From: a virus
Taxonomy: Duplodnaviria; Caudoviricetes
DNA length: 48,502 nt
Virus record (IMG/VR): IMGVR_UViG_3300033145_000424
Span: 1-48,502 of that record
Direction: 5' to 3' (one strand)
Made by a program: the position numbers and the translations under genes. Each line of letters starts with the position of its first letter. Within the stretch, counting starts at the first letter, position 1. Under the pieces are notes generated by a model. It worked only from the letters and a program-made list of their open reading frames with translations, was not told where the DNA came from and searched no databases. Positions 5,311 through 48,274 of the stretch are shown here, piece by piece.

Positions 5311-5603
5311 TTTCCATTTTCTCCTGTTTGTGCGTCATTAAAACTCAAAGGAATCACTCTCTCTTTTGGTGGCTCAAGAGAAAGAACCGTTAATTCATAT
5401 TTAGTTTCGCCATCATTGATGATCACTCTGGCGCCAAACTCTGTGGCATAAATATCACCAAATGTTAGCTCTTCATCAGTTGAGCTTTTAAATAACTCAA
5501 CTATGTCCATGCTCTTTTTTGCCGTTGCCATCATGCCCATCCTTTGGTTCTCATTTTTTCGGTTGGTGTGACTGAAGCTTAGCAAAGATTGGATTCTAGT
5601 CAA
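5307..5603 (-). CDS. Hypothetical protein (true start probably near 5535)
   Basis: First gene after the leftward promoter; the tracked TTG start overlaps the promoter. Confidence 0.55.
   Translation of the reverse strand: MTRIQSLLSFSHTNRKNENQRMGMMATAKKSMDIVELFKSSTDEELTFGDIYATEFGARVIINDGETKYELTVLSLEPPKERVIPLSFNDAQTGENGK
5576..5603 (-). promoter_or_regulatory. Leftward sigma70-like promoter
   Basis: TTGACT-16 nt-TAAGCT. Confidence 0.6.
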
Positions 5604-5620
5604 GCTTTTTTTAAAATAAG

Positions 5621-5648
5621 TTGACTTTGTTTAGGAATAAGCTAAAGT
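5621..5648 (+). promoter_or_regulatory. Rightward sigma70-like promoter driving the cro-like gene and cassette array A
   Basis: TTGACT-16 nt-TAAAGT. Confidence 0.65.
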
Positions 5649-5669
5649 ACTTAAAACACAGGAGGAAGT

Positions 5670-5867
5670 ATGAATATAGGCAAATCAATAAAACACTATC
5701 TAAACAAGCAAGATAAAATTAGGGCTGAATTAGCTGATTACCTTGGGCTATCTCTCACTTATGTAAGCACTCTATGCAATAGCAAAACTGCAGGTAAGTT
5801 GCATATTGGAGAATTGAGCGCCTTCTTTAACGTCTCAGCATCTGAATTCATTAAGGCCGGAGAATAG
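5670..5867 (+). CDS. Cro/XRE-family HTH regulator
   Basis: RAELADYLGLSLTYVSTL HTH; FFNVSASEF. Confidence 0.8.
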   Translation: MNIGKSIKHYLNKQDKIRAELADYLGLSLTYVSTLCNSKTAGKLHIGELSAFFNVSASEFIKAGE

Positions 5868-5876
5868 GGGAATATA

Positions 5877-6197
5877 ATGAGGCAAAAAAGACAGCTGCAT
5901 AACCTTGTTATGCCTACAGACCTAAAAGACCATCTCGTTGAGATTTTTTACCAGAGAGGCGACCCTGCTTTTACATGCGGCTCAATAGGTCATTGGTGTG
6001 TAGAGAATTTATGTGGTGTTGAAGCACAAATTAACGAAGGCATGGATGATGAAGACAAGACTGCTCTTTTTGAAGACGGCGATGGATCATATCTTTTTAG
6101 CATGAGTTTTGAGCCGCCAGATTACGAGCTAGGCGGTATAGGTGACGGCTATTGGTATTTCGAGAAAGTTAAATACAAGCCTGTGATTGAGGCATAA
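5877..6197 (+). CDS. Cassette hypothetical protein
   Basis: Bounded by GTTATGCCT/AGGCATAAC; stop is the TAA of the core site. Confidence 0.7.
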   Translation: MRQKRQLHNLVMPTDLKDHLVEIFYQRGDPAFTCGSIGHWCVENLCGVEAQINEGMDDEDKTALFEDGDGSYLFSMSFEPPDYELGGIGDGYWYFEKVKYKPVIEA

Positions 6198-6302
6198 CGC
6201 CCAAAATAACTGGGCGCGTGACCAAGTTTAAATAAGAACGCGGTGCTTTATACGCTCCACGTTGATTTTGATTGTTATATTTACCACTGAGGTATATTTG
6301 AA

Positions 6303-6530
6303 ATGACAGAGCCAATGCATGAGGACTACATTGCTGCTGGACTTAGAAATCAAACAGCACAAGAGCAGCAGGAATTTAATTTATTTTGCATGCTAAAGCC
6401 GACAGTTAAGAGAGATGGCAATCAATGGTGTGTGATTTATGGTGAAGATAAGACAGGTATTGCGGGATTTGGTGGCTCACTACACCTTGCAATTATGGAT
6501 TTCAACGCTCAATGGTACAAAGAAATATAA
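6303..6530 (+). CDS. Cassette hypothetical protein
   Basis: Bounded by GTTATATTT/AAATATAAC. Confidence 0.7.
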   Translation: MTEPMHEDYIAAGLRNQTAQEQQEFNLFCMLKPTVKRDGNQWCVIYGEDKTGIAGFGGSLHLAIMDFNAQWYKEI

Positions 6531-6642
6531 CGTTGCAAATAAGGTGGCACACTCGGTGCCAGAATAGAAACGAAAGACTAACCTGCTCAGCTTGATTTGC
6601 TTTGTTAGGCTATTTAGAACACTGGAAACTAGGAATTAAACA

Positions 6643-6969
6643 ATGAGCCATGCAACTGGAAAAGTGAGATTTAATGATGGAACAGTAATGTTCTATGAGT
6701 ATAACGGCACCTGTGATGTTGTGTGCAATTGCCTCTACGACTCTTATAAAGAGATGCATAGCAATTGGCGCGACCAACCCAGCAATGAGTGTACATGCGG
6801 CAACGATGAAGAGGTTGAAATTGCCACTAATTATGCAGATGGATACTACTGGCCAGGAAAAGCTTGCCGCAAATGTAAGGCCATTACGCGTGGACTAGGA
6901 AGCGCAGTAGATGAATACATTTATGACGAAGAAACAGAGGGATTACCTGACTGGTGGGCTGAAGCCTAA
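6643..6969 (+). CDS. Cassette Cys-rich hypothetical protein
   Basis: Bounded by GTTAGGCT/AGCCTAAC; YEYNGT and CxxC motifs. Confidence 0.7.
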   Translation: MSHATGKVRFNDGTVMFYEYNGTCDVVCNCLYDSYKEMHSNWRDQPSNECTCGNDEEVEIATNYADGYYWPGKACRKCKAITRGLGSAVDEYIYDEETEGLPDWWAEA

Positions 6970-7080
6970 CGTTGCAAATGAGATGCACCCCCACAAATGT
7001 ATAGATAACCGCTGCGCTTTGCAGTGTCAGATTAATTGCCGTTGTTATAACGCGCTAACTACAGACTATAGGTAACCGAC

Positions 7081-7803
7081 ATGAAAGACGAATTGATAAA
7101 CTCCATTAGCAAAATGATACCGTGCGGCAACCGATTGGAGTTGCCAAAGGAAGAGCATTTTGCTAACTACGCACAAGTTAAAAAAGCGCTCTTGACCGCA
7201 GGTGGCAAGTATAAGAAATGTGGGTTTGAATTTACTGAAGATGCTGGAGAGGTTCAGGCTCGATTAATTGGCGGCGAAGTAATTAATGACAAAAAGAAAT
7301 ATCAATTTTTCGCCACGCCTCCACAATTAGCAGAGCAACTGGTTGAGCTGGCAGGGATACAAGAAAACCATACATGCTTGGAACCATCCGCAGGACAAGG
7401 CGCTATTTCTGATTTGATGCTAGAAAAAGCTGGGAGCTGTACTGTTGTTGAGCTGATGCCAGAAAACATTAAGGCGCTTACGCGAAAAGGATATGCCCCG
7501 ATTGAGTGCGACTTCTTAGCTGAAACATTAGGCTCGTTCGATAGAATCGTTGCTAACCCACCATTTACAAAAAACCAAGACATTGACCATATTCGGCACA
7601 TGCATTCAATGCTAAAGCCTGGTGGAAAGTTGGTTAGTGTTGCAAGCAAAAGCTGGACGTTTGGCACCCAGAAGAAGCAAGTTGCTTTTAGAGAATGGCT
7701 TGATGAGATTGGGGCCACCGTTACAGATGTGCAAGCAGGTGCTTTTAAAGAGAGCGGGACTAATGTGGCCTCGGTTATCGTAGAAGCTAGCCGTGCGTTA
7801 TAA
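7081..7803 (+). CDS. SAM-dependent (probable N6-adenine DNA) methyltransferase, cassette-borne
   Basis: FFATP, LEPSAGQG (motif I), NPPF (motif IV), FKESGT. Confidence 0.85.
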   Translation: MKDELINSISKMIPCGNRLELPKEEHFANYAQVKKALLTAGGKYKKCGFEFTEDAGEVQARLIGGEVINDKKKYQFFATPPQLAEQLVELAGIQENHTCLEPSAGQGAISDLMLEKAGSCTVVELMPENIKALTRKGYAPIECDFLAETLGSFDRIVANPPFTKNQDIDHIRHMHSMLKPGGKLVSVASKSWTFGTQKKQVAFREWLDEIGATVTDVQAGAFKESGTNVASVIVEASRAL

Positions 7804-7851
7804 TGTTGCATATTCAGCTGACCGCGTGAACAGAAAACAGGACTAGACACC

Positions 7852-8106
7852 ATGAATGAGTTAACTAAAACCGATGAACTTGAAAAGCCCACCACAGCAG
7901 CGGGTCAGGCTGGAATTGCCTTGTTAGGCGACACCCACTACATGTGTGAAATGTGTGGGGAAATTAATGAAAGAGGATGGACAAAAGAAGAGTCACTGGC
8001 TGAGGCAAAATCCAACGGGTTTGACCCAGAGGAAAACCCAGATGATTACGGAATTGTTTGTGACGATTGTTACAAAAAGACTCCGTGGGGAATGGCTGAC
8101 GCCTAA
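7852..8106 (+). CDS. Cassette Zn-finger-like protein starting inside attC
   Basis: CEMC and CDDC; RBS and ATG lie in the attC loop. Confidence 0.6.
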   Translation: MNELTKTDELEKPTTAAGQAGIALLGDTHYMCEMCGEINERGWTKEESLAEAKSNGFDPEENPDDYGIVCDDCYKKTPWGMADA

Positions 8107-8206
8107 CGTTCAAAATCACCCGGCGCACTGGGTGCTTAAATAAAACCGCTAAAGTTGACCCGCTCGGGTGAATTTTGCTTGTTAGGTGTGATCGGAGAGG
8201 TGATAT

Positions 8207-8470
8207 ATGGGCATGAACAAGGCTGACATATTAGCAGACTGTATAAAAGATAGGCTAGGAAACCCTGAAAACGAGGAGGAATACTTAAAGGCGGCTTCCT
8301 GGGTTGATGAGTTGCATGCATTGGCTGACCCTCAAGCTGCCGAATTACGCAACCTTGAGGGGTTATTAACAGAGGCGCGTACCCTGCTGGAAATTTACAG
8401 TAATAACGATGTTCTTGGGTGCGGCGGTGAAGAGATGATTAAACAGATAAATAACCATTTTGACACCTAA
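8207..8470 (+). CDS. Cassette hypothetical protein
   Basis: Bounded by GTTAGGTGT/ACACCTAAC; GGAG/GAGG RBS. Confidence 0.7.
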   Translation: MGMNKADILADCIKDRLGNPENEEEYLKAASWVDELHALADPQAAELRNLEGLLTEARTLLEIYSNNDVLGCGGEEMIKQINNHFDT

Positions 8471-8500
8471 CAGTGATTAGGCAGCTGGGAGCTATATAAC
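8465..8500 (-). other. attI-like site, type 1
   Basis: Minus-strand GTTATATAGCTCCCAGCTGCCTAATCACTGTTAG, 34/34 identical to 45857-45890. Confidence 0.7.
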
Positions 8501-8514
8501 ACTCAGAGGGTGGA

Positions 8515-8727
8515 GTGAAATACAGCTCTCTGAGCAAAACTCTAGGATATTTTATGGCCAAGAAAGTAAACCAATCTGACCCATGGAATATAGGGTATCT
8601 AGTCGCGTCTATGGGGTTTAAGCGTGTGCCGTCTGTTATTCCTATTGGCGCGACTGAAAGTGAGTATAGGGAGCGCTGGTTGGCTGGGTATGATGCATTC
8701 CATGAGCGGGGTGGTAAAGCTCATTGA
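8515..8727 (+). CDS. Hypothetical protein
   Basis: ORF ending WLAGYD; followed by a terminator. Confidence 0.5.
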   Translation: MKYSSLSKTLGYFMAKKVNQSDPWNIGYLVASMGFKRVPSVIPIGATESEYRERWLAGYDAFHERGGKAH

Positions 8728-8742
8728 GATTATAGCATCCAC

Positions 8743-8783
8743 AAAAAAGCCGAGATCACTTGCGTGGTTTCGGCTTTTTCTTT
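8743..8783 (+). terminator. Intrinsic (possibly bidirectional) terminator
   Basis: AAAAAAGCCGAGATCAC-TTGC-GTGGTTTCGGCTTTTT. Confidence 0.7.
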
Positions 8784-8793
8784 ATGCTTATAT

Positions 8794-9191
8794 TTCAGTC
8801 GTTTTAAGTGGCCCTGCAAGGCCCGGCTGAAGAGGACAACAACGAAAGGAAATATAGCAATTAATTAGTGTTTGTTCAACACTGGCTTACCATAAGCAAT
8901 CGTTTATGGTCCTTTTGTCCTCATAACTTGCACGAGGACGGGCATACCAACAGACTCGTAAACCACGTGGCGTAGTACTTAGTGTTTACAACACACAATC
9001 TCAACCTTTAAGGGGCGGGGATAATTCCGGGTTAAAGTGGTGTATAGGGATTTACAACGATTTCCCTCTGGATCTTCTGTCTACCATAGCAGATAAGCAG
9101 AGGCCGGCAATACTGTAGATTGTGCTTACATGCGTTAAACGGTGGTCTTATTATCCATACCATATAAGGCTCCTTTATGTCAGGTATTGCC
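8794..9191 (+). ncRNA. Candidate large structured non-coding RNA or origin region
   Basis: About ten nested inverted repeats in an ORF-free ~400 nt. Confidence 0.4.
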
Positions 9192-9597: not shown

Positions 9598-9756
9598 ATG
9601 AAAGGCTTTACTTTACTAGAGCTGATGATAGTTATGGCAATACTTGGAATCCTTGCAGCTATCGCTTTGCCTGCATACCAAGAGCATGCCGCTAAACAAT
9701 ATACTGACGGCACATCACTTGAACAGCCTGATCATGAGGTCAATGGATTAAAATGA
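9598..9756 (+). CDS. Type IV pilin N-terminus-like peptide (52 aa), missing from ORF track
   Basis: MKG|[26 protein letters not shown]...; GGAG RBS; ATGA overlap with next gene. Confidence 0.85.
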
Positions 9757-11155: not shown

Positions 11156-11587
11156 TACTAACGATTTAAATCACCTGTGGCGCTGGGTGATAGAAAAAGC
11201 GCTAATGAAGAATACATCTGGTGGATTTATTTTGTTAGCTGCTGGAGGCTATTGTGAGTAAAGAATACGGAATTGTTGCTAATGTTACTGGAATTGACCG
11301 CTTTGTGCGCCAAGGGTCGAAAGCATGGCTGTCTGGTGGCACAGGTGGCGAAGGGTGGTACAAGTTCCAATGGATATGCCGCACCAGGGGAGGAAGATTG
11401 ATAGAAAAATGGATGCCTACAGAAAGACTCAGTAACTTCAGATGCGCCTGGATACCAAAGCACATATGGGCACTGGCCGATGGGCATCTTTATATGACTG
11501 GTAGCAAGGTAGAAATGGAAAAAAGAGCTGCTGATCTAAACGAATTTCACAGCACTCTCAAGCGCAGCTAACAGGGGATAGACAGCT
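11156..11587 (-). mobile_element. Integron-like array B (single cassette)
   Basis: attC-like 11156-11240; cassette ends GTTAGCTGC/GCAGCTAAC; attI-like CTAACAGGGGATAGACAGCT at 11568-11587. Confidence 0.8.
11254..11571 (+). CDS. Cassette hypothetical protein
   Basis: GGAGG RBS, GTG start; stop is the TAA of the core site. Confidence 0.7.
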   Translation: MSKEYGIVANVTGIDRFVRQGSKAWLSGGTGGEGWYKFQWICRTRGGRLIEKWMPTERLSNFRCAWIPKHIWALADGHLYMTGSKVEMEKRAADLNEFHSTLKRS

Positions 11588-16112: not shown

Positions 16113-16221
16113 GGCATAACGATTAGTTGAGAAGCGTGGTGCACGACAATGATTAAGTGCACCGCTACTGAAAACCACGTCTTTTCGAACGGCGTGTTAT
16201 GCAGAACCCCATACTACGGAG

Positions 16222-16458
16222 TTGATAATGATTAAATACTATTGCGATATTTGCGGCACCGAAATTACACCAGAGAACAAGAAGCCTGCGACATTTACAG
16301 GCAAAAAAGTAAGCACCCACGGCTTGCCAAAAAGAGAGCTGATGGTGCAGCTTGTTGAACATGACCCATGTGGCGACGAGGATGCATGTGTTTGCAAGTA
16401 TTGCATGATAGATGCAATTAAGAGCGCAGATGATCGCCCTATGGAAGGTGCTGCATAA
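16222..16458 (+). CDS. Cassette Zn-ribbon-like protein
   Basis: YCDICG and CKYC; cassette ends GTTATGCAG/CTGCATAAC. Confidence 0.65.
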   Translation: MIMIKYYCDICGTEITPENKKPATFTGKKVSTHGLPKRELMVQLVEHDPCGDEDACVCKYCMIDAIKSADDRPMEGAA

Positions 16459-16570
16459 CAGTTGCGAATAAGGTGGCACACTCGGTGCCAAAATAGAAAC
16501 GAAAGACTAACCTGCTCAGCTTGATTTGCCTGGTTAGGCGATTACTACCACTGAAGACTAGGAGTTAAAA

Positions 16571-16768
16571 ATGAGCGACTTTACAGCAAGAATGTTTGAA
16601 GAACATAGCCAGCTATCTACAAGAATTGAGAAGCTGAAGGCTTTTATTGTTTCTGATAAATACGACACGTTGCCAGAAGTTGATCAGGCTGATTTAAAAA
16701 AACAGCTGAAGCACATGGAAGGCTATTTTAAGGTATTAAGTTGCCGCGTTTCTCGTCAGTGTGGGTGA
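16571..16768 (+). CDS. crAss001_48-like small phage protein
   Basis: RM.EE..L..RI.KL..FI...Q..LK.Q...M..Y..L..R pattern. Confidence 0.6.
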   Translation: MSDFTARMFEEHSQLSTRIEKLKAFIVSDKYDTLPEVDQADLKKQLKHMEGYFKVLSCRVSRQCG

Positions 16769-16946
16769 AGAAATGAATATTGAATTATTACTTGTGATTA
16801 TGGCTTGGATGGTGGCGACCTCTATTGTGTTTCGTATCAGAGATGTATGCAACTCTGACTGCCAATATGAATTTTTGAGAGCCACATGGGAGCCTTACGC
16901 AATATCCATCGGGCTACTGATGATGGCAATAGGGCATTACGCCTAA
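16761..16946 (+). CDS. Small two-TM membrane protein (second ORF of the cassette)
   Basis: Hydrophobic segments; stop in the core site. Confidence 0.55.
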   Translation: MGEEMNIELLLVIMAWMVATSIVFRIRDVCNSDCQYEFLRATWEPYAISIGLLMMAIGHYA

Positions 16947-17019
16947 CGACCGCAATTAACCGGCACGAGTGAAGCGAGTGTCGGGTTGAATTGCCGTGTT
17001 AGGCCAAGCTTTATTTTAC

Positions 17020-17048
17020 TTGACCTGACCGATAAGTAAGACTAGATT
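17020..17048 (+). promoter_or_regulatory. Cassette-internal sigma70 promoter
   Basis: TTGACC-17-TAGATT. Confidence 0.6.
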
Positions 17049-17061
17049 TGAAACTGTGGAG

Positions 17062-17156
17062 TGATACCCACTACAAGTGAGTTAAACAAGGCGTACGTCT
17101 TGGCTAGGTGGGATCTCACTCCCCCGTATCAACTGGCCAGGGTGTACGCCTTTTTT
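17062..17156 (+). ncRNA. c4-like antisense RNA module 3 (cassette-borne)
   Basis: Stem AAGGCGTAC/GTACGCCTT plus U-tract; internal CTCACT and GTATCA complement upstream AGTGAG and TGATAC. Confidence 0.65.
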
Positions 17157-17170
17157 ATTGGGATAGGATT

Positions 17171-17383
17171 ATGCTAAATGTTAACAAACAAAAAGGGCAA
17201 ATTGACGGCGAGCTTATTGGGATTCTTATCGGGCTGGCGCTCTTTGTGGCCAGTGTTGCCGCTTGGTTTACCCATATTTTTACTTGCCTCTCTGAAGAAG
17301 CTTGGGGTTTCCTCATTGCTGGCGCGATTATGTTCCCGATTGCGATAGTTCACGGCTTTGGCATATGGTTTGGTTTCTTCTGA
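17171..17383 (+). CDS. Membrane protein with prepilin-like leader
   Basis: MLNVNKQKG|QIDGE followed by hydrophobic helices. Confidence 0.65.
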   Translation: MLNVNKQKGQIDGELIGILIGLALFVASVAAWFTHIFTCLSEEAWGFLIAGAIMFPIAIVHGFGIWFGFF

Positions 17384-17518
17384 AGTGAAGGCCGCACAGA
17401 TAGTAGATTGTGCGGCCTAATGTGGGCAATAAGTTGCAGCCCACCTAGATTGAACAAACCGCAGCGACCTCGCTGTCAATTTGATTGCCCTTGTTAGACG
17501 GCGAGAACGGAGAAACTA

Positions 17519-17770
17519 ATGTTTGCAAAACTATATGAAACAGAAATTGGACAGATTCTAGTTAAGAGAGATGAGGGGGATGATGGGCCAGAGATGAGGC
17601 TTTTCTTTAAACCGGAAAAGTTAGGTGTGTGTTCATTTGCTTTTTCATACTCAGATGATGATGAAGGTTGGGATAAGCTGGACAAAGCATTTGACGACAT
17701 GAATGAAAAAGATGCCACAGAGATGACAAAAAACATCTTTAGTAACGTTACTCAGAAGACTTTTGAATAA
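17519..17770 (+). CDS. Cassette hypothetical protein
   Basis: GGAG RBS; between attC sites. Confidence 0.7.
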   Translation: MFAKLYETEIGQILVKRDEGDDGPEMRLFFKPEKLGVCSFAFSYSDDDEGWDKLDKAFDDMNEKDATEMTKNIFSNVTQKTFE

Positions 17771-17891
17771 GAGCCGCCTAACGTGAAAATAACCTGGCAC
17801 GTATAGATGACTGGGCAAAACGCGGTGACGGAATGCTCAGGTTGATTTTGCTTGTTAGGCGATTTGATGAACCGAAAACTAGGAGATTAAA

Positions 17892-18323
17892 ATGGGAATG
17901 GTATTTACTGTTGATGAGATTAAACACTATCTTGGTGGCCACAAAACTATAGAGGCCGCTATTGATAACATAAGTGGGCAAGCTATTGCTTCATGTATCC
18001 CTATTACAAATGTTGACAGCCTGAACTTCAAGAAAAACGATGCCAATTTAGAGAAATATGAAACGATGATTGGTATGAGCAAACAAAAGAGCTATCAGCG
18101 CACCTTGCACCAGAAAAGCGGAGGCAAAGAAGGGCGGAAATGGATGGCGTTATCCCCAAAATGGATTGATGGCCATAAGCTAGAAACAGAGTTTGAGATT
18201 GCATATTGGGTAAATTATGGGGATGACAATACCTACGGTTGGTTTTCTGTTGAGCAGATTCAACAATGGTTTGCCAACCCTGGAATACAGCTACACGAGC
18301 TTGGTGGCAGAAAAGAACGGTAG
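17892..18323 (+). CDS. Cassette hypothetical protein
   Basis: AGGAG RBS; between attC sites. Confidence 0.7.
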   Translation: MGMVFTVDEIKHYLGGHKTIEAAIDNISGQAIASCIPITNVDSLNFKKNDANLEKYETMIGMSKQKSYQRTLHQKSGGKEGRKWMALSPKWIDGHKLETEFEIAYWVNYGDDNTYGWFSVEQIQQWFANPGIQLHELGGRKER

Positions 18324-18414
18324 AAGCCTAATGTGGCGCTTAACCTGCGCGAGCGCAGCGAGTGTCAGCGTTGAAGCGCATTGTTAGGCCGAACCTACAC
18401 AGGACTATAAAACT

Positions 18415-19131
18415 ATGACAACAAGACTATTACAAGGCGATTGCCTAGAACGCATGAAAGAGATAGAAAGCGGCACCGTTGATATGGTGCTGGCTGACCC
18501 GCCTTACGGCACTACATCGTGCAAATGGGATAGCGTGATACCGCTGGAACCAATGTGGGAACAGCTAAAAAGGGTGGTTAAGCCCAATGGTGCTATCGTA
18601 ATGACGGCAAGCCAACCATTTACCACTACACTGATAAGCAGTAATTTGAAGATGTTTAAATATTGCTGGGTATGGGAGAAGAGCAAGGCAACAGGGCATG
18701 CGCTATGCAAAAAAAGACCGATGAAGGCGCATGAGGATATAGCTATATTTTGCGGCGGTGCGGAACCATACGAGCCACAAATGACGGAAGGCAAAGCCTA
18801 TAAGTCAAAGCTAGGGAGAAAGGAAAGCACGGAGTTCAGCACGGGAAAAGAGCGGAATGATAACACTGGCTATAGATACCCAAGGAGCGTGCAATATTTC
18901 AAAACCAGCGAGTCAGAGCGAAACACCCACCGGCACCCAACACAGAAGCCATTACCACTAATGGAATACCTGATCAGAACTTACACGGACGAGTGTGAAA
19001 CGGTGCTAGATTTCACAATGGGAAGCGGAACTACGGGCGTAGCCTGCAAGAATCTAAACCGACACTTTATTGGAATAGAACTCGATGAAGCATACTTTAA
19101 GATTGCACAGGATAGGATTAGTGCGGCCTAA
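18415..19131 (+). CDS. N4/N6 DNA methyltransferase (beta class), cassette-borne
   Basis: DPPY, HPTQKP, DFTMGSGTT. Confidence 0.92.
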   Translation: MTTRLLQGDCLERMKEIESGTVDMVLADPPYGTTSCKWDSVIPLEPMWEQLKRVVKPNGAIVMTASQPFTTTLISSNLKMFKYCWVWEKSKATGHALCKKRPMKAHEDIAIFCGGAEPYEPQMTEGKAYKSKLGRKESTEFSTGKERNDNTGYRYPRSVQYFKTSESERNTHRHPTQKPLPLMEYLIRTYTDECETVLDFTMGSGTTGVACKNLNRHFIGIELDEAYFKIAQDRISAA

Positions 19132-19175
19132 CGATTGAGTTAACCAGCTTGCGGGAATTAAAGGAGTATGCCAAA

Positions 19176-19436
19176 ATGAAACACAGTAGTGGATGCAGCG
19201 AATTTTTGGATGAAAAGCACCACTGTAGCAAGTCTGCGTTGGACGACTTGTTAGTTGTTTACTCGGTGCTTATTTGTGACTGCATATTTGAATCGAGCTT
19301 TGCAACCGTTAGCTTACACCGCACTAAGCGCGGAGCAGTAAAGGCGATGAACAGGCTTAAAAAAGAATACTTTTACGATTACCCTTTTTATGACTACATG
19401 CGCCTGAGATACGGCAAGCAAGAAATAGGAGAGTGA
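19176..19436 (+). CDS. Cassette hypothetical protein starting inside attC
   Basis: AAGGAG and ATG within the attC loop. Confidence 0.55.
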   Translation: MKHSSGCSEFLDEKHHCSKSALDDLLVVYSVLICDCIFESSFATVSLHRTKRGAVKAMNRLKKEYFYDYPFYDYMRLRYGKQEIGE

Positions 19437-19651
19437 ATATGGAAACATTAGGCGACCGGCTTAGAGTGTATAGAACTAAAGCAGGACTTACGCAGGATAA
19501 ATTAGGTGAATTATCTGGCTCTAACCAGGCATGTATTCAGAAGATAGAAAACGGACGCTCTGAGAACCCACGCTGCCTTAGGGATATTAGCAAAGTGCTT
19601 GGTGTGCGCCCAGGGTGGCTGCATTATGGTGAAGGTGAGGCAGACAACTAA
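19433..19651 (+). CDS. XRE/Cro-family HTH regulator, cassette-borne
   Basis: LGDRLRVYR..AGLTQDKL...IQKIENG...LGVRPGWL. Confidence 0.88.
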   Translation: MNMETLGDRLRVYRTKAGLTQDKLGELSGSNQACIQKIENGRSENPRCLRDISKVLGVRPGWLHYGEGEADN

Positions 19652-19737
19652 CAGGGGATAGACAGCTATGTGCTATCTATTTCCACCCATGCAACATGAA
19701 ATGCAGCACATCGCCGTCTAATCACAATTAGGAAATT

Positions 19738-31329: not shown

Positions 31330-32960
31330 TGGCAATACCGGACGTAACCGCCCTGCCAAGGCACATGCCAACCGCAACCAGGCCAGTTGCCAGCTATCGG
31401 CCAGTAGATAGCGGTGTTGGAGAATTGGGCGCAGGAATAAGCAATCTAGGCGCTGGCTTTCAGCAAATTCAAGAGCAGGAAGAGACAGAGCGCGACCAAT
31501 TAGAGAGGGTTCAGGCTAAATCTGCATGGCTTAATCATAGGATTAACGCGCAGGCCACATCTAAAAAGAATGATGATTATTCTACTCTGCCAAAAACCCA
31601 TACGGATGAGCTGGAAAAAAGCAGGCAGTCAGTACTTGAGGGCATAACTAACCCACAGAGCAGAGCTATATTTGAAGCTGAAACCAGCGCAGACATGGCT
31701 AAAGAGGGAAGCTGGGCAAATGATACTGCCTTTGGTAAAGAGAGCGACCACCAAAACGCCACACTAAACACTGATCTTGAAGTATTACTTGAAAACGCAT
31801 ACACGGTTGAAGACAAAGAGCTAAGAGACCAGATCCTGCAGAATATTCAGGATAGGATTGATCTTCACGCAGACAATGGGTTCTATGGTGCAAATGGCGA
31901 GCAGAAAGCCGTAGCATCAAAGAAGGCTGCCGTATCTAAGTTTGCTCTGAACAAAATCCAGATGGCCCCACCTGAAGAACGAGCAGATATGCTCAAAGGT
32001 GAGCTAAAGAAATTCATTGATGCGCCAACTAGAGCAAAGCTGAAAGAAGAAGCTGAAGCTGAAATTAAAGCAGATGATGCTGACCGCATAGAGTCGCAGG
32101 CTTATGCCTTTGCTGATGCTTGGGTAAGTAAAGGACTAGAGCCAGATCAAGCCGAAAAAGAGCTAAGAAAAGTGCCGGTTAAATTGAGGGATGAGGCAAG
32201 AGCTGAATATACCCGCCAGAACAACATTAAAGAGAACAAGGAAAAGAACGATAAATTTGACACATATCAAGAGCTGGCAAAAAACATTGATGAAGACGGC
32301 CTAACCTACGAGCAGGTAAGGATGGCCGAGGGGTTTGACAAGCTTGATGACAATCACAGGGACGCGCTGAAGAAAAGAGATTACTCAACCAAGGCGGGGG
32401 TCGTACCAAAGAGCTCAGACAGAATTGTGCTTGATAAACTTATTGGCCTTGAGCAGGCTGGCGAGTGGGATGAGGCAAGGACATTTTTTATTGAAAGCGG
32501 GCATTTGTTAGATGAGTCTGATTATTCTACTCACTCAAAATCAACCCAAGAAAAACATCTTGAGCCTGCGAATAAAGAGCTTTACACAAATCAACAGGTT
32601 TTGGCGTCCAAGTTAAAGGATGTGAAAAACGACAATGAGATTGGCGCAATCAAGAGCCACATGGAGAAGTGGTATAGAGACTATCAAGCTCTTCATGAGG
32701 GCAAGATTCCATCTAGAGATGAGTTTAACGTAGAAGCCGATAGAGCTATTCTCGATACTGATCTTTGGTTCTGGGAAGAGGGCTTCCAGGGTCGCGGTGC
32801 AGAGCATCCACAGGCCATTGAGAAAGGATTGCTCCTATCGTTCACTGAGCAGCAAAGAGCCAGGGCATCAAAGGCCTACGCAACAAGATATGGTGGTGAG
32901 CCAGATAGCAAACAGTTATTCGACTACATGAAAGCGGCATCTCAGATGAGGCCAAAGTGA
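31329..32960 (+). CDS. Internal virion (ejection) protein
   Basis: Helical and charged; position. Confidence 0.6.
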   Translation: MAIPDVTALPRHMPTATRPVASYRPVDSGVGELGAGISNLGAGFQQIQEQEETERDQLERVQAKSAWLNHRINAQATSKKNDDYSTLPKTHTDELEKSRQSVLEGITNPQSRAIFEAETSADMAKEGSWANDTAFGKESDHQNATLNTDLEVLLENAYTVEDKELRDQILQNIQDRIDLHADNGFYGANGEQKAVASKKAAVSKFALNKIQMAPPEERADMLKGELKKFIDAPTRAKLKEEAEAEIKADDADRIESQAYAFADAWVSKGLEPDQAEKELRKVPVKLRDEARAEYTRQNNIKENKEKNDKFDTYQELAKNIDEDGLTYEQVRMAEGFDKLDDNHRDALKKRDYSTKAGVVPKSSDRIVLDKLIGLEQAGEWDEARTFFIESGHLLDESDYSTHSKSTQEKHLEPANKELYTNQQVLASKLKDVKNDNEIGAIKSHMEKWYRDYQALHEGKIPSRDEFNVEADRAILDTDLWFWEEGFQGRGAEHPQAIEKGLLLSFTEQQRARASKAYATRYGGEPDSKQLFDYMKAASQMRPK

Positions 32961-35449
32961 GTCCGCTAGCTACTCAAGACGATTCTGATTTCATCTTTGG
33001 CGAGCCTGAAGATAATCTAGGGCTTAGTCTTCAGCTTGGCATGAAGCAGGAGCCTGATAAGTTTTCTAAAGATCAGGCTATCGCTGATCAATTTGCTGTT
33101 CCCCGTGAAACTGTAGAGAGAAACCCGAAAGAGTTTGAGTTCAAGATCCGCAATGAAGAGATGGATCATGAGAAGATCAGGCGTGATACGCCCTCATTAG
33201 CTAAGTTTTTGGCATATCCTGACAATGCATCACAGGCGCATGATGATGTTGAGAGTTTAAGTTCACTAGAGCTTGCTGAAAGAAAGTATAGAGAGAGCCA
33301 GCCTAGAGGTGTATTTGAAAACACAACCAGAGGGTTTGCTACTCGAGCTTTTGATCTTGTAGGAAATTTCGCACAAGCCGTTGGGGTTTCTGCTAAAGGT
33401 GGAGAGCAGTGGCTTGCTGACTTCACCGGAATAAACCCCGGCGTTAAGTTTGGCGAAGATGGGGTTTCCTGGAAGTGGGATTTAGACCCTGAAAAGACAG
33501 GCGATTTCCTGAATGTTGCAGGCGAAAGCATAGAAGAGTTTGCAGCCGAGGCCTTTGATTATGTGCCAGGGTTTACCTGGGAAGAGCTGAAGGGCGATGT
33601 GACTCCAGAGAATCTAGCTGGATACATCTTTGAGCAGGGTGTAAGGACTATCCCTGATATGTTTGCGGCAATGTATACGTTGCCCGCTTACATAACTTCT
33701 AGGTCTGAAGAGATTGCAGAAGCAAGGGTTGAGAATGATCTACGAACACAGGTGGAGCCTAAAGACCTAATAACAGCTGTTCCAATAGCTGTAACTGTTT
33801 CCTTTTTGGAAAGGATCGGTGCGCTGTCAGTGTTTAAACCTGGAAGAATCACCGGGTTAAGGCAAGTGCCTGGAGCCATAGGAAAGGCGACTGCCGGTGA
33901 AAGCGCTACTGAGTTCATTCAAGAGCAGCTTGAGTACGCTGGAGAAACATTAGGAACCAAGAAAGAGTTCAGCCCTTGGGAGATGCTTGACCGAGGCATA
34001 GGTGGTGCGGTTGCTGGGGGAGGTATGGGCGGTGGAATACGCTCTGCTACAGCCTCGGCAGAGGCTACGCTGTTTGGCAAAAAGGTACAGGAAATTGCTC
34101 AGTCCAGCGGAGAGCAGCAACTGCTGGATACCATCTCTCAAGTGGCTGCAGAATCAAAACTAAATCAGAGAAACCAGGGGTTATTCCAGCAGTTTACTGA
34201 AAGCCTCGGTAGCCAGACCGTGGTTTATGTTCCAAGCGATGTGATGGAAGAGAGCTACACTGGTGATGATCAAGATATTATAAGGCAGATGGAAGAATCA
34301 AAAGCGATGGGCGGTGCAGATATTGTGCTGCCTATTGATGTTTACACCACAAAAGTGGCAGTTGATTCTAATATCCAAGCTATTCGGCCTCACGCAAGGC
34401 TGTCTGAAGAATCGCTATCGCAGTTTGAAATGGAGCAAACCGACCTTAAACAAGACATGATTGATCTTGTAGGAAGGGTGCAGGCTGATGTTGAGGTTAG
34501 AACTGAGTTAGATGAGATCGGTGCGGATGTTGAAAGGCAGCTAATTGAAACAAAAAGAGTAGTGCCTATGCATGCTAAAAAGATGTCGGCACTGATCACC
34601 AGCAACGCCAAGGCAAAATCAGAGCGCCTATGGAAAGAGAAGGGCGTGAAGATTTCACCTAAAGAGATATACGAAAAGGCAATTAAGAAGGTCAAGGGGC
34701 CAGATGGTCAGGTTGATGCAGAAGAGGCTCTGCAGCAGGCCAAGACTGAAGGCTATAAAGGGGGAAGCCAAGGCGAAGCGGCGGAATGGGTTAGGGCGGT
34801 GCAGAAATTTGGGCCGGAAGGGATGACTAAAGAAGCCAGGATGGGGCGGGCTAAGGGGATGGGATTTAACACTGAGCAGGTGCTTTATCATGGTACAACT
34901 CATACGGACATCGAGTCATTCTTACCTAAAAGCGGTGAGGCGCTGCGGCTCCATAGATTGGCAAAAAAAACTGACGCCCCATTTGGGACGCATATGTTCC
35001 GAAAGGGAATATTTTTCAGTCCTGATCCAGCATATGCAGGTAGTTACACAGAAGAAGACACCGGGCTTATTTACCCCGTGTATGCAAAAGCAAGCAACCC
35101 AGCAGTATTCAATGGGCTTACCAAGCAATGGTCAATTAGGGATGAAAGCACCACACCTGATGCAATGCATATTACAGACGGGGAAAAGGTCGTAGAGGTC
35201 GCAATCATTAACCCCTCTCAAATCCGCTCAGTCAACGCTGCCTTTGACCCTGACTTCAAAGAGCTTGGGGATCTGTTAGCTCAAGCCAAGCCCGGTGCGC
35301 AATATGCCCAAACAGAAGTAACCACAACAGAAACAATCCGCGAAACAGGCGAAGTAGTAGAAATCACTGAGAATGGTGAGGTCGCGTATAATCGAACACA
35401 ACAAAGAATGCAGTCACTTCAGAACATGATTACTTGCTTAAGGAACTAG
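32957..35449 (+). CDS. Large internal virion protein with C-terminal ADP-ribosyltransferase-like (ART-PolyVal-like) domain
   Basis: LYHGT...GIFFS...A.SY...IYPVY...NP...PSQIRSVNAAFDP. Confidence 0.65.
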   Translation: MSPLATQDDSDFIFGEPEDNLGLSLQLGMKQEPDKFSKDQAIADQFAVPRETVERNPKEFEFKIRNEEMDHEKIRRDTPSLAKFLAYPDNASQAHDDVESLSSLELAERKYRESQPRGVFENTTRGFATRAFDLVGNFAQAVGVSAKGGEQWLADFTGINPGVKFGEDGVSWKWDLDPEKTGDFLNVAGESIEEFAAEAFDYVPGFTWEELKGDVTPENLAGYIFEQGVRTIPDMFAAMYTLPAYITSRSEEIAEARVENDLRTQVEPKDLITAVPIAVTVSFLERIGALSVFKPGRITGLRQVPGAIGKATAGESATEFIQEQLEYAGETLGTKKEFSPWEMLDRGIGGAVAGGGMGGGIRSATASAEATLFGKKVQEIAQSSGEQQLLDTISQVAAESKLNQRNQGLFQQFTESLGSQTVVYVPSDVMEESYTGDDQDIIRQMEESKAMGGADIVLPIDVYTTKVAVDSNIQAIRPHARLSEESLSQFEMEQTDLKQDMIDLVGRVQADVEVRTELDEIGADVERQLIETKRVVPMHAKKMSALITSNAKAKSERLWKEKGVKISPKEIYEKAIKKVKGPDGQVDAEEALQQAKTEGYKGGSQGEAAEWVRAVQKFGPEGMTKEARMGRAKGMGFNTEQVLYHGTTHTDIESFLPKSGEALRLHRLAKKTDAPFGTHMFRKGIFFSPDPAYAGSYTEEDTGLIYPVYAKASNPAVFNGLTKQWSIRDESTTPDAMHITDGEKVVEVAIINPSQIRSVNAAFDPDFKELGDLLAQAKPGAQYAQTEVTTTETIRETGEVVEITENGEVAYNRTQQRMQSLQNMITCLRN

Positions 35450-38708: not shown

Positions 38709-38872
38709 TGTTTCCCTCTGGGCATTTTCCGCTAGGGCACTTTGCAGTGGGCCACTTTCCACCGGTGCCGCTCGTATGGAAATCGGTCTTTGGGGAAAAG
38801 AGGCAGAAGGAAGAAGAGGAAATTCTATTACTTATGATTCAGGCAGCGTTTCAAAATGGGTTCATTAAATAA
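38708..38872 (+). CDS. 54-aa protein with (GHF)x3 repeat, missing from ORF track
   Basis: MFPSGHFPLGHFAVGHFPP...EEEEILLLM; GGAGG RBS; TAATG coupling. Confidence 0.6.
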   Translation: MFPSGHFPLGHFAVGHFPPVPLVWKSVFGEKRQKEEEEILLLMIQAAFQNGFIK

Positions 38873-45734: not shown

Positions 45735-45886
45735 AGTTCATCCCCAGGAATCTTCATATGTTTAATTATGCCCTCTTTTTGGCATTGTTCAAGTTTGAGC
45801 TGTATTTGCATAGTTTTTGGCCTCCTCAATAGCTGTATTTCTCCCACCCCTTCGGAGTTATATAGCTCCCAGCTGCCTAATCACTG

Positions 45887-46081
45887 TTAGCCTTCAAGGT
45901 GAGCCGCATGGCAGGCTGTAATCTCGCTTACATTAATCATCAGCCCTGGCTCAACGTAAAAGTGATTTAAGGCGGTTGGGTCTTTCATCGCTCCATCAAG
46001 CATATCCTGCACAAACTTGTCTTTATCGGTGACATTGATGGTCATTTTATGTCCGTTTTTAAAACTAATCGTGTATTCCAT
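45887..46081 (-). CDS. Cassette hypothetical protein
   Basis: Cassette ends GTTAGCCTTC/GAAGGCTAAC. Confidence 0.7.
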   Translation of the reverse strand: MEYTISFKNGHKMTINVTDKDKFVQDMLDGAMKDPTALNHFYVEPGLMINVSEITACHAAHLEG

Positions 46082-46176
46082 AGCTCACCCCAGAAGGCTA
46101 ACAACGTAAATCAACGCGGAGCATTTCATCATTAGCGTTTTGTTTGGGCACCGAACGTGCCCGGTTATTTACAACA

Positions 46177-46584
46177 TTATGCCTCAAATCCGTACCTCTC
46201 ATTAAGGCGCTTGTCATATCGCGCTTTCGCCTCCTTATCTCCTTCAAAAGTTCCAGCATAGAAATCATTGAATTCCTCAATGGTCATGTTCTCCTTATTC
46301 CATTCCCATGATACAAGTCGATGCCCTACGCGATCTTCCATTAACGTTCTCAGCTGGCTTCTTCTGCCTCCCGTCTTGTAATCTTGCGTCTCATGGCTTT
46401 TGTCTTCATTGGGGAGTTCTTCAGGCCACTCCCATTTATTTAGCATGCAAGCCCATTGGGCTAGCGTTACATCATCTTGATTATTAATCACCTCAAGATC
46501 TTCAGGCATAACAAGGCAATTTAACGCCGACCCACTACTGTGGCGCTTGGGTTCACTTTCTGTGGTTTCGTTCGATTTAGTCAT
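46177..46584 (-). CDS. Cassette hypothetical protein starting inside attC
   Basis: AAGGAG and ATG in the attC loop. Confidence 0.65.
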   Translation of the reverse strand: MTKSNETTESEPKRHSSGSALNCLVMPEDLEVINNQDDVTLAQWACMLNKWEWPEELPNEDKSHETQDYKTGGRRSQLRTLMEDRVGHRLVSWEWNKENMTIEEFNDFYAGTFEGDKEAKARYDKRLNERYGFEA

Positions 46585-46632
46585 GGTATTCAGCTCCTTG
46601 TTTATCTGCCCGTGGTCGGGTTAATTGCAACG

Positions 46633-46923
46633 TTAGGCGGCATACAATTTCTGCACGAATGCCCGCCGTTTCTGCTTTGCTCTTTGGGTGGCTGATACTC
46701 TTTCTTGCACCCGCTTAATACAATTCTGCATACCTGCCTGCATGGGTAAAATCTTAACCTCTGCCCACGTTCTGAATATGTCGTACCACTTCCACCATTT
46801 CGGAACCTCAAGCGCCCACTCATACTCATACTCATACCGATATGGATGATCAACTAGGGTTACACAATAGCTCTCGTATGCTCTGGTGCTGATTGAATCA
46901 TAATAAGGGTAATTCACAAACAT
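46633..46923 (-). CDS. Cassette hypothetical protein
   Basis: ATG at 46923; AGGAGG RBS overlaps the core site. Confidence 0.6.
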   Translation of the reverse strand: MFVNYPYYDSISTRAYESYCVTLVDHPYRYEYEYEWALEVPKWWKWYDIFRTWAEVKILPMQAGMQNCIKRVQERVSATQRAKQKRRAFVQKLYAA

Positions 46924-47009
46924 CCTGCCTCCTAACAACGGCAATTAATCTGACACTGAAATTTCAGCGCCTTTTTAGGTATCTGTGGTGGTGCAGCTTA
47001 TTGCCCACA

Positions 47010-47315
47010 TTAGCCTTCTACCGTTTTCTTGATATCGGCTATTCTCTTCTTTAAATAGATAATCTCGCTTTGCTGTTCAGCAAATAGCTGCACTTTATCT
47101 CTATCCAGAAATGTCAGGATGTCGGTTATCTCAACCCCCATTATCTGAAGTTTCTTTTTAACGTCCAGCAATGCTTTGGTTTCCATGCCGAATATCATTT
47201 CAATATCATCTGCACTGGGTCTGTTCATGGTTGCTCTCTCAGGTTTCGTGCAAATACTGCACTGTTGGCGAAACTTTAGATGCTCGCAAATAACATCTGG
47301 TCTTCCTGGCCTCAT
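47010..47315 (-). CDS. Cassette hypothetical protein
   Basis: GAGG RBS; stop in the core site. Confidence 0.65.
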   Translation of the reverse strand: MRPGRPDVICEHLKFRQQCSICTKPERATMNRPSADDIEMIFGMETKALLDVKKKLQIMGVEITDILTFLDRDKVQLFAEQQSEIIYLKKRIADIKKTVEG

Positions 47316-47420
47316 ACATCACCTCTCCGCTCACGGCTAACAAGTAAAATCTAGCTGACGGCCTAAGCTTTGGCACTTTTAATCACTACCCAGTGCCGCA
47401 CCTAATTTTCACATTATGCT

Positions 47421-47906
47421 TCAAAACGGTACGCCGTTGTTCTTATCCGAATAGGTGATAAGGTCACGTAGTTCTCCTATTTCGCGCTCATACATTGATC
47501 TAATTGCCTTTTCTTTTTTGCTTGCAGGGCGCTCACCAATGCTGGCTTCGTATTGACCGCTCAGCTCTACTGAATTATCAAGAGCGTCTTTCATCGCGGC
47601 GTTCATTCGCCACCAAGCGCTCTGCTTAACCAACTGAACCACCTCGCCACCATCCTCGGTTACAGCAGCTAATACATCTCCAGCGAAAGCAATTAGGACT
47701 TTTTCCCAGTCATCCCATTCGCCAAAGTCACCCTCAAGGTTGTTAGAGGCGTTCGTGCCTTCACCATAGGCGGCCTCTTTGCATTTATAAATCCTGCTTT
47801 TTGCCATCTCGCTAACAGTAGGCAGGCCAAGCATAACAAGCGCATCAACCTGATTCGCTACTGTGGTGCTTGATTCAATTTTGTCACTCTTCATGTCCAT
47901 GTCCAT
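47421..47906 (-). CDS. Cassette hypothetical protein starting inside attC
   Basis: AAGGA and ATG in the attC loop. Confidence 0.6.
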   Translation of the reverse strand: MDMDMKSDKIESSTTVANQVDALVMLGLPTVSEMAKSRIYKCKEAAYGEGTNASNNLEGDFGEWDDWEKVLIAFAGDVLAAVTEDGGEVVQLVKQSAWWRMNAAMKDALDNSVELSGQYEASIGERPASKKEKAIRSMYEREIGELRDLITYSDKNNGVPF

Positions 47907-47959
47907 GTCTTTTCCTTAAATATCAGCTGTTTAAACCCGCTCTCAGGTTATGCTTGTCG

Positions 47960-48154
47960 TTATAACGCTGAGTCATTTATATAAAAATCATCAGCCGTGA
48001 AATACTCATTCTGCGCCAGCCGCCATTCTTCGGCCTCTTTGCGCGTGTCGAATGAGGTTATCAAGTGCTCGTGACCTTCGTCTTCCATTAGCACTGCTTT
48101 CCGGATTACTTGAAAGCGTTTTGTTTCATCTAAGTTCTTCCAGCTAGTATCCAT
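47960..48154 (-). CDS. Cassette hypothetical protein
   Basis: Cassette ends GTTATAACGC/GCGTTATAAC; likely start MDTSW. Confidence 0.6.
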   Translation of the reverse strand: MDTSWKNLDETKRFQVIRKAVLMEDEGHEHLITSFDTRKEAEEWRLAQNEYFTADDFYINDSAL

Positions 48155-48274
48155 AATGCACCCCGCGTTATAACAAAATAAATCCACCAGACTGCTCCAA
48201 CATTAGCGCCTTTATTTAACCACCCAGCGCAGCAGGTGATTTACAACGTTATCGGAATTGCCAATTCCTTCTTC

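Follow-up and report, generated by a model that had tools for sequence, protein, structure and literature searches.

In integrons, promoterless cassette genes are each followed by an attC site, and the bottom-strand selectivity of recombination keeps the genes facing Pc. The first making of cassettes is an open question in the field. For the canonical integron, the cut is described on the bottom strand, in the AAC of R′ (PMC5027507). Clusters of attC sites in phages, and their activity with IntI1, have already been published (Qi et al. 2023, PMC9892861). Here we describe a phage genome in which the orientation of attC-type sites relative to their genes is reversed.

Inverted attC arrays in a complete phage genome

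The window, i.e., the whole 48,502-nt virus record analyzed here, is flanked by direct terminal repeats and is a complete phage genome, with genes for terminase, head-tail connector, and capsid (63 ORFs were compared with Pfam and 22 with PHROGs). The profiles TIGR02249 and PF00589 have no match anywhere in this complete genome, from which an intI gene is thus absent, and an Rfam search of the sequence gave no match. Curation from the sequence yields 19 attC-type hairpins in four arrays. Three arrays of five to seven sites qualify as CALINs (at least two clustered attC sites and no neighboring integrase) and are accompanied by one single-site array.

6192..8487, + strand: Array 1, hairpins 6192-6280, 6525-6610, 6964-7050, 7798-7929, and 8101-8187; terminal half-site 8465
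11156..11587, + strand: Array 2, hairpin 11156-11240, ORF 11254-11571; terminal half-site 11566
16114..19667, + strand: Array 3, hairpins 16114, 16453, 16941, 17415, 17776, 18326, and 19126; terminal half-site 19646
18415-19131, + strand: N6/N4 DNA methylase cassette within Array 3
45870..48254, − strand: Array 4, hairpins 48254, 47965, 47419, 47015, 46638, and 46182; terminal half-site 45892

The hairpins fall into the three size classes proposed in an earlier note on this DNA, which all hold: 64 nt (two sites, 16941 and 18326), 85–89 nt (13 sites), and 131–135 nt (four sites). Two cassette genes code for DNA methyltransferases (7081-7803 and 18415-19131), as in other phage CALINs, and two cassettes contain two ORFs (16539-16946 and 19176-19651), the latter with an HTH regulator directly before the terminase gene. 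Over 109 nt, which take in the leader as far as the ATG, the medium sites at 6532-6640 and 16461-16569 show 89% identity, but the ORFs behind them are unrelated; a hairpin with its leader is also common to 8101 and 47419. Array 4 has no blastn match in annotated phages, and a sigma-70 promoter scan of 5400-9000 remained at chance level (8 versus 6.3). Elsewhere, a 52-aa ORF (9598-9756) with a pilin-type N-terminal methylation motif (PF07963) precedes a Band 7/SPFH gene, and the large proteins of the virion region (32957-35449 and 38856-43211) show LPD22 and ART-PolyVal domains and a weak GNAT match.

All 19 sites close with GTTA, and they open with TAAC (13 sites) or TAAT (six sites). The six TAAT sites (7798, 17415, 18326, 47419, 47015, and 46182) keep an invariant 3′ GTT and form a G-T pair on the coding strand only. 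Paired L boxes are present in 18/19 sites, along with a central spacer that is unpaired and an extrahelical base in one of the arms; 6964 fits neither orientation. The extra base is called on the 3′ arm of the coding strand (G in 12 sites, A in six). A detector based on this base assigns 18/19 sites to the coding strand and 1/19, more weakly, to the opposite strand, where the six AAT sites are unscorable; among the AAC sites alone (n = 13), 12 fit the coding strand and one the opposite strand. The published bottom strands of attC-aadA7 and PH101 run in the same direction as the coding strand here (PMC9892861, Table S3). A canonical cassette would have its ORF on the top strand and its attC 3′ of the gene, and here the ORFs lie on the bottom strand. 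Hence, the sites are inverted, and a hairpin together with the gene downstream forms one cassette. With the bottom strand as coding strand, recombination would cross over at the stop codon of the upstream gene (TAA|C), and what the earlier note took for the downstream core site is the R″ box. Folding energy alone was rejected as a strand indicator: it is lower for the coding strand in most sites, not in all.

The 3′ heptamer of a site complements the 5′ heptamer of the next hairpin, across the ORF, in 17/19 cases and its own 5′ heptamer in 4/19. Shuffling gives a mean of 3.6 and a maximum of 11 for this complementarity, and 17 was reached in 0 of 100,000 trials. The complementarity of the cassette ends extends beyond the heptamer to about 9 bp (17/19 at position 8, 14/19 at position 9, 6/19 at position 10). 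In other inverted arrays, among the matches listed, heptamers are complementary across the ORF in 116/157 pairs and within the site in 22/157. Complementarity across the ORF is what characterizes circles integrated through site-specific recombination, and in 17/19 cases the ends are such that an excised circle would restore a perfect R box. In cassettes common to different phages (L247/L262, L262/L293, L257/L293, and L290/L367), the match spans one TAAC to the following one, and the neighbors differ. Because these whole-cassette moves start and end at the TAA|C of the 5′ arm, the attC belongs with the downstream gene, a tie that the earlier note had proposed.

The search for similar arrays used a detector and search patterns built from the sites of this genome. 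The matches listed amount to 118, 2, 51, and 120 viral, 123 bacterial, and 83 metagenomic loci, many of them chance matches; flanks were taken for at most 80 loci per scan, and a locus was kept if the same strand carried two or more strong sites. Among the matches listed, the viral arrays are inverted in 41 cases and canonical in two, with four ties; the bacterial arrays are canonical in 15 cases and inverted in three, one of these with the site series of the viral locus L008; and the metagenomic arrays are canonical in 23 cases and inverted in nine, with three ties. TJE1 and an IntI-bearing Shewanella prophage are canonical by score, and the Vibrio control (L121), with a single site, was left unscored. 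The matches listed by a viral scan with TAATG were almost entirely chance matches. The sites of the cultured phage PH101 are inverted too, as their validated bottom strands lie on the strand of the annotated neighboring ORFs. In PH101 (KR534323, L514:30800-33000), a hairpin and its leader up to the ATG are duplicated ahead of different ORFs. A related phage, the complete 38.7-kb G001 (L279/L280/L290), has the HTH region (76%) and a homolog of ORF 17892 in common with the window, as well as several inverted arrays; no tyrosine recombinase was found in it.

Replication may offer a reason for the inversion. When genes are co-oriented with replication, the lagging-strand template is the coding strand. 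The folding of attC is favored with the bottom strand as lagging-strand template (PMC5371416), and this folding advantage could account for the inverted layout.

All four arrays close with a half-site composed of a shared motif and a heptamer matching the last hairpin.

8465..8487, + strand: attI-like half-site, ACCTAAC AGTGATTAGGCAGCTG, complements GTTAGGT of the last hairpin; TAA-N5-GTT on the other strand
11566..11587, + strand: attI-like half-site, AGCTAAC AGGGGATAGACAGCT
19646..19667, + strand: attI-like half-site, AACTAAC AGGGGATAGACAGCT
45870..45892, − strand: attI-like half-site, GGCTAAC AGTGATTAGGCAGCTG

These terminal half-sites lie where an attI is expected and may act as attI. They come in two versions, and those at 8465 and 45892 share about 60 nt ending in a second CAGCT stretch that resembles the short version of 11566. 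Upstream, three arrays have no exact matching half-site, and Array 1 has a lone 3′ arm (5908-5914). None of the first 118 loci contains the exact terminal motif; it is found in two viral stretches, both without an array, and so is not widely conserved letter for letter. Among the matches listed, about 40 similar terminal candidates close other arrays, some of them being missed hairpins. An integrase adjoins one such array: in a complete viral genome (L246/G006), an inverted array has an IntI (282 bits versus a cut-off of 265) at its 3′ end, and an attI-like stretch separates the two. IntI scores above the cut-off in 1/5 genomes tested, and an untyped tyrosine recombinase is found in 2/5 others. 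The intI gene of G006 (L246:3346-6828) is co-directional with the ORFs of its array, the sites of 89–91 nt are near-identical, and the cassette adjoining intI has a 12-bp terminal inverted repeat.

Predicted starts in the loops of long sites

The features of interest are as follows.

5877..5914, + strand: probable truncated fifth case; SD and ATG 5877 read MRQKRQLHNLVMP through a lone 3′ arm, 5′ arm absent
7798..7929, + strand: long attC, 132 nt; 5′ TTATAAT holds the stop of the methyltransferase ORF; loop AGGA and ATG 7852; 3′ GTTAGGC; its coding strand is the attC bottom strand
7852..8106, + strand: 84-aa ORF; head of about residues 1–26 from loop and arm, then a CxxC...CxxC body
19126..19256, + strand: long attC, 131 nt; loop AAGGAG and ATG 19176; 3′ GTTAGTT
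19176..19436, + strand: 86-aa ORF; predicted start in the loop, rival SD and ATG at codon 58, the least certain case
19433-19651, + strand: HTH ORF, sharing its cassette with ORF 19176
46506..46638, − strand: long attC, 133 nt; AAGGAG and ATG 46584; 3′ GTTATGC contains an in-frame ATG without SD
46177..46584, − strand: 135-aa ORF, member of a 333-protein family
46930..47015, − strand: medium attC, 86 nt; 3′ box GTTAGGA plus GG gives AGGAGG, serving ATG 46923
47831..47965, − strand: long attC, 135 nt; AAGGA and ATG 47906 (also 47900); 3′ GTTATGC contains an in-frame ATG with a poor SD
47421..47906, − strand: 161-aa ORF, predicted start in the loop

The earlier note had claimed a ribosome-binding site and an ATG, open into the downstream ORF, in the loops of all four long sites, and this holds: an in-frame SD and ATG is found in 4/4 loops, against a mean of 0.23 and a maximum of 2 in 1500 loop shuffles. 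The four ATGs (7852, 19176, 46584, and 47906) lie 23–24.7 codons ahead of the G of the 3′ GTT, and no stop interrupts the reading from them into the downstream ORFs. Since SD and start lie inside the hairpin loop, the DNA swap signal of the four longest hairpins probably doubles as the code for the first 25 or so amino acids. The reading through the arm is open in all four sites, and its frame varies: the 3′ arm is read as Val(GTT)-Met in 46584 and 47906 and as Leu-Leu (TTG TTA) in 7852 and 19176. One fixed frame for every loop start was thus rejected, with two frames here and 5/41 loop-start sites outside frame 0 elsewhere, among the matches listed.

SD energies, computed against an anti-SD motif, amount to −4.0 kcal/mol for 7852 (weak, AGGA), −8.2 for 19176, −7.7 for 46584, and −6.1 for 47906; in 7852, a TTG at codon 24 scores −4.3, versus −4.0 for its own weak SD. 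In predicted mRNA folds, the unpaired probability is 0.53–0.68 at the loop start versus about 0.3 in the 3′ arm. The start lies 6–32 nt beyond the hairpin, nearly always with an SD, in the short and medium sites (14/15 checked, 16941 with its longer leader being left out). At 46930-47015, the core itself supplies AGGAGG, as previously noted, for ATG 46923, 6 nt past the site (SD −10.2 kcal/mol). An SD and ATG of its own, in the style of frame 0, lead us to regard the half-site at 5908 as a truncated long attC; the alternative is a second attI. Its GTTATGC (5908-5914) complements the GCATAAC of the next site, and 5877..5914 is probably a truncated fifth case of loop start.

For other phages, sites over 110 nt were counted as long, after removal of near-duplicates. 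Among the matches listed, 40/56 long inverted sites have an SD and ATG in the loop, the strongest being in frame and open in 32/40 (p = 2e-9 versus 1/3). Any in-frame loop start is found in 33/56 of these listed sites, against a mean of 2.2 in loop shuffles, and such starts span 23/37 site families (68% identity) and 32 loci. In the other classes, again among the matches listed, a loop SD and ATG occurs in 0/86 long canonical sites (on the ORF strand), in 14/111 medium inverted sites (eight in frame), and in 2/28 short inverted sites (none in frame). The equation of long site with loop start therefore fails as a general rule, with just 33/56 elsewhere among the matches listed. A loop start is absent from 23/56 long inverted sites, 17 of which start downstream; 10 long inverted sites have both kinds of start and 23/56 have no SD-led downstream start, all among the matches listed. 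The frame is 0 in 36/41 loop-start sites, versus an even 46/35/37 over the three frames for downstream-start sites, among the matches listed. Size peaks at 56–74, 84–94, and 120–134 recur in the other inverted arrays among these matches, in a histogram that is biased because the search patterns selected medium and long classes.

Heads, bodies, and rival explanations

We consider it likely that these are inverted cassettes, whose coding strand is recombined at TAA|C by an IntI acting in trans and which carry their own start signal, in the loop for long sites. The integrase would cut the coding (that is, bottom) strand at the stop codon of the upstream gene, the mobile unit would consist of hairpin, start signal, ORF, and stop, and arrays would grow at the attI-like site of their 3′ end. 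As the hairpin lies at the 5′ end of the mRNA of its own gene, the cassette must bring its own translation start. This would lie just beyond the hairpin in short and medium sites and in the A-rich unpaired loop in most long sites, from which a ribosome would read some 25 codons through the 3′ arm into a low-complexity N-terminal extension. Such a head would be a portable start module, not a functional domain.

The family of 46584 allows head and body to be told apart. When the best 150 of its 333 members and four others are aligned, occupancy is about 5% at residues 10–17 and 98% from V25, the GTT codon. Among these, 77/154 begin 4–8 residues ahead of D29, and the GTTATG box falls at the native start of the family. 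L500, a cassette-free relative, possesses a GGAGG of its own, and its protein opens with MTGKDL versus MPEDL. With homology starting at the 3′ GTT, what was captured is a whole gene, not a fragment. The making of cassettes by fusion of ORF fragments, as suggested earlier, thus does not fit 46584, whose body is essentially a full-length gene with its native start at the GTTATG box; furthermore, routine exchange of cassettes, with its crossover at the stop codon of the preceding gene, would not attach a head to a different ORF. The single relative of 7852, P0006, for which no DNA context was found, is headless and matches from H29 on, with Ile at the internal Met of 7852. The homolog alignment called for in the earlier note thus places the beginning of similarity at the 3′ GTT for 46584 and just after it for 7852. 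In L005, the box GTTAGCT occupies the start-codon position of a cassette-free relative, and in L007 an AGG stands where the relative has ATG; with the start codon replaced by arm codons, the loop start would be the sole start. No relative was found for 47906 (Atlas hits of at most 0.80) or for 19176 (Atlas at most 0.81, no tblastn match in phages), and in seven further viral relatives of 46584 (L502-L508) no inverted array was found around the matching region.

The residues E, T, N, and K abound in heads. Their three codon positions vary equally (40, 38, and 39 of 123, in nine related pairs), so that the head sequence looks unselected, and no purifying selection was seen by this comparison in these pairs. 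Heads look neutral, and other bodies carry them as well. Sites 81–86% identical to hairpin 46638 precede unrelated ORFs in L044, L280, and L367, with identity ending after GTTATGC. Conversely, the heads of five members of the 46584 family differ and all end in LVMP, four of them being judged from the peptide.

These heads bear on a possible addition to the favored explanation, compatible with it, toward which we remain slightly skeptical: both hairpin ends may exchange, and besides TAA|C a top-strand recombination at the 3′ GTT would join hairpin and head to new bodies in frame, creating cassettes and re-pairing heads. This agrees with near-identical heads on unrelated bodies (46638 versus L044, L280, and L367), with one body (LVMP-ED/EE/SD) under five differing heads, with identity that ends directly after the 3′ GTT in two pairs, and with the excess of frame 0 in loop-start sites (36/41 versus 46/35/37, among the matches listed). 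Top-strand recombination at R″ does occur (PMC5027507), and is reported at lower frequency for phage attC sites (PMC9892861). However, two of the four cases here are in frame 2, peptide likeness is the measure for the heads of the other four headed relatives, and capture at native TT-ATG contexts could itself give frame 0 (18/36 have the box ATG). Any cassette-making process that adds a standard attC also predicts shared heads.

A further reading, which we find doubtful, takes this mirror-image integron as a cassette factory: an attC with a ribosome entry would join a resident gene at the GTT of R″ and replace its start signal, so that one hairpin makes the gene both mobile and translated and is later re-paired, in frame, with further genes. 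The phages would bear the attI-like docking sites, and IntI would act in trans. If true, it would be a visible and testable route of cassette genesis. Codon-wise comparison with cassette-free relatives (46584/L500, L005/L280, and L007/L030) places the join at GTT, and thereby makes the question of origin testable.

It is unlikely, in our judgment, that the loop ATG opens a read-through that melts the mRNA hairpin or couples translation, most protein being made from the ATG of the GTTATG box or from further downstream. In 46584 and 47906 the core ATG is in frame, and it is the native start of the 46584 family, so that it may be used too, or instead; heads evolve without codon bias, and short ORFs within attC are reported to relieve the hairpin block (PMC8876359). 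Yet the SDs of the core ATGs are poor (−1.5 and −3.2), these ATGs lie in a paired arm (unpaired probability of about 0.3 versus 0.5–0.7 at the loop start), and 18/36 frame-0 sites lack a core ATG. Since the reading is free of stops from loop ATG to body, initiation in the loop yields a fused protein.

We consider it very improbable that the likeness to attC is incidental and the hairpins serve as RNA elements (stems for processing or translational control) or are inert relics. In favor of this view, the genome has no integrase, the G-T wobbles of the coding strand suit RNA as well, and for several long sites the predicted minimum-energy DNA fold differs from the recombinogenic one. Against it, complementarity runs across the ORF (17/19) and not within the hairpin (4/19), cassette moves are bounded at TAA|C, the extrahelical G is at its canonical place, IntI adjoins one such array (L246/G006), PH101 sites of the same polarity are IntI1 substrates (PMC9892861), and Rfam has no match.

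In conclusion, the observation of the earlier note is confirmed and its interpretation partly supported. The orientation rule of integrons is reversed in 41/47 scorable viral arrays among the matches listed, and the recombination site would itself be coding. This layout would explain why a class of phage hypothetical proteins has low-complexity N-termini that end in LVM, IVR, or LLG; PH101 provides a cultured test case.

Comparison with known systems

A literature search covering few subscription journals found no paper on inverted phage cassettes or in-frame loop starts. The closest described systems are the CALINs of virulent phages (PMC9892861), which are likewise integrase-free attC clusters with small ORFs and DNA methyltransferase cassettes. 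The main text of that work describes neither ORF polarity relative to the bottom strand nor in-loop starts nor attI-like array ends. The present genome contains 19 sites, arranged in four arrays; TJE1, from the same work, scored canonical.

Short ORFs in attC sites and ORF-11 of attI1 (Jacquier 2009, as covered in PMC8876359 and PMC11511950) are similar in that translation signals inside a site help the next gene across the hairpin. There, the signals form separate mini-ORFs acting by termination-reinitiation and are called anecdotal, whereas here the loop start is fused in frame, in 33/56 long inverted sites among the matches listed.

With the canonical integron, as described in PMC5027507, the arrays share the RYYYAAC/GTTRRRY boxes, the L boxes, the extrahelical G, the unpaired central spacer, and the variable terminal loop, as well as complementary cassette ends and, if the terminal half-sites are taken as attI, the top-strand order attI-cassette-attC. 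In contrast to it, six sites have AAT for AAC, the terminal half-sites have 5 nt between TAA/TAT and GTT versus 6 in the Shewanella attI, the ORFs lie on the bottom strand with the attC 5′ of the gene and the predicted crossover at a stop codon, and additional cassettes would be inserted at the operon's distal end.
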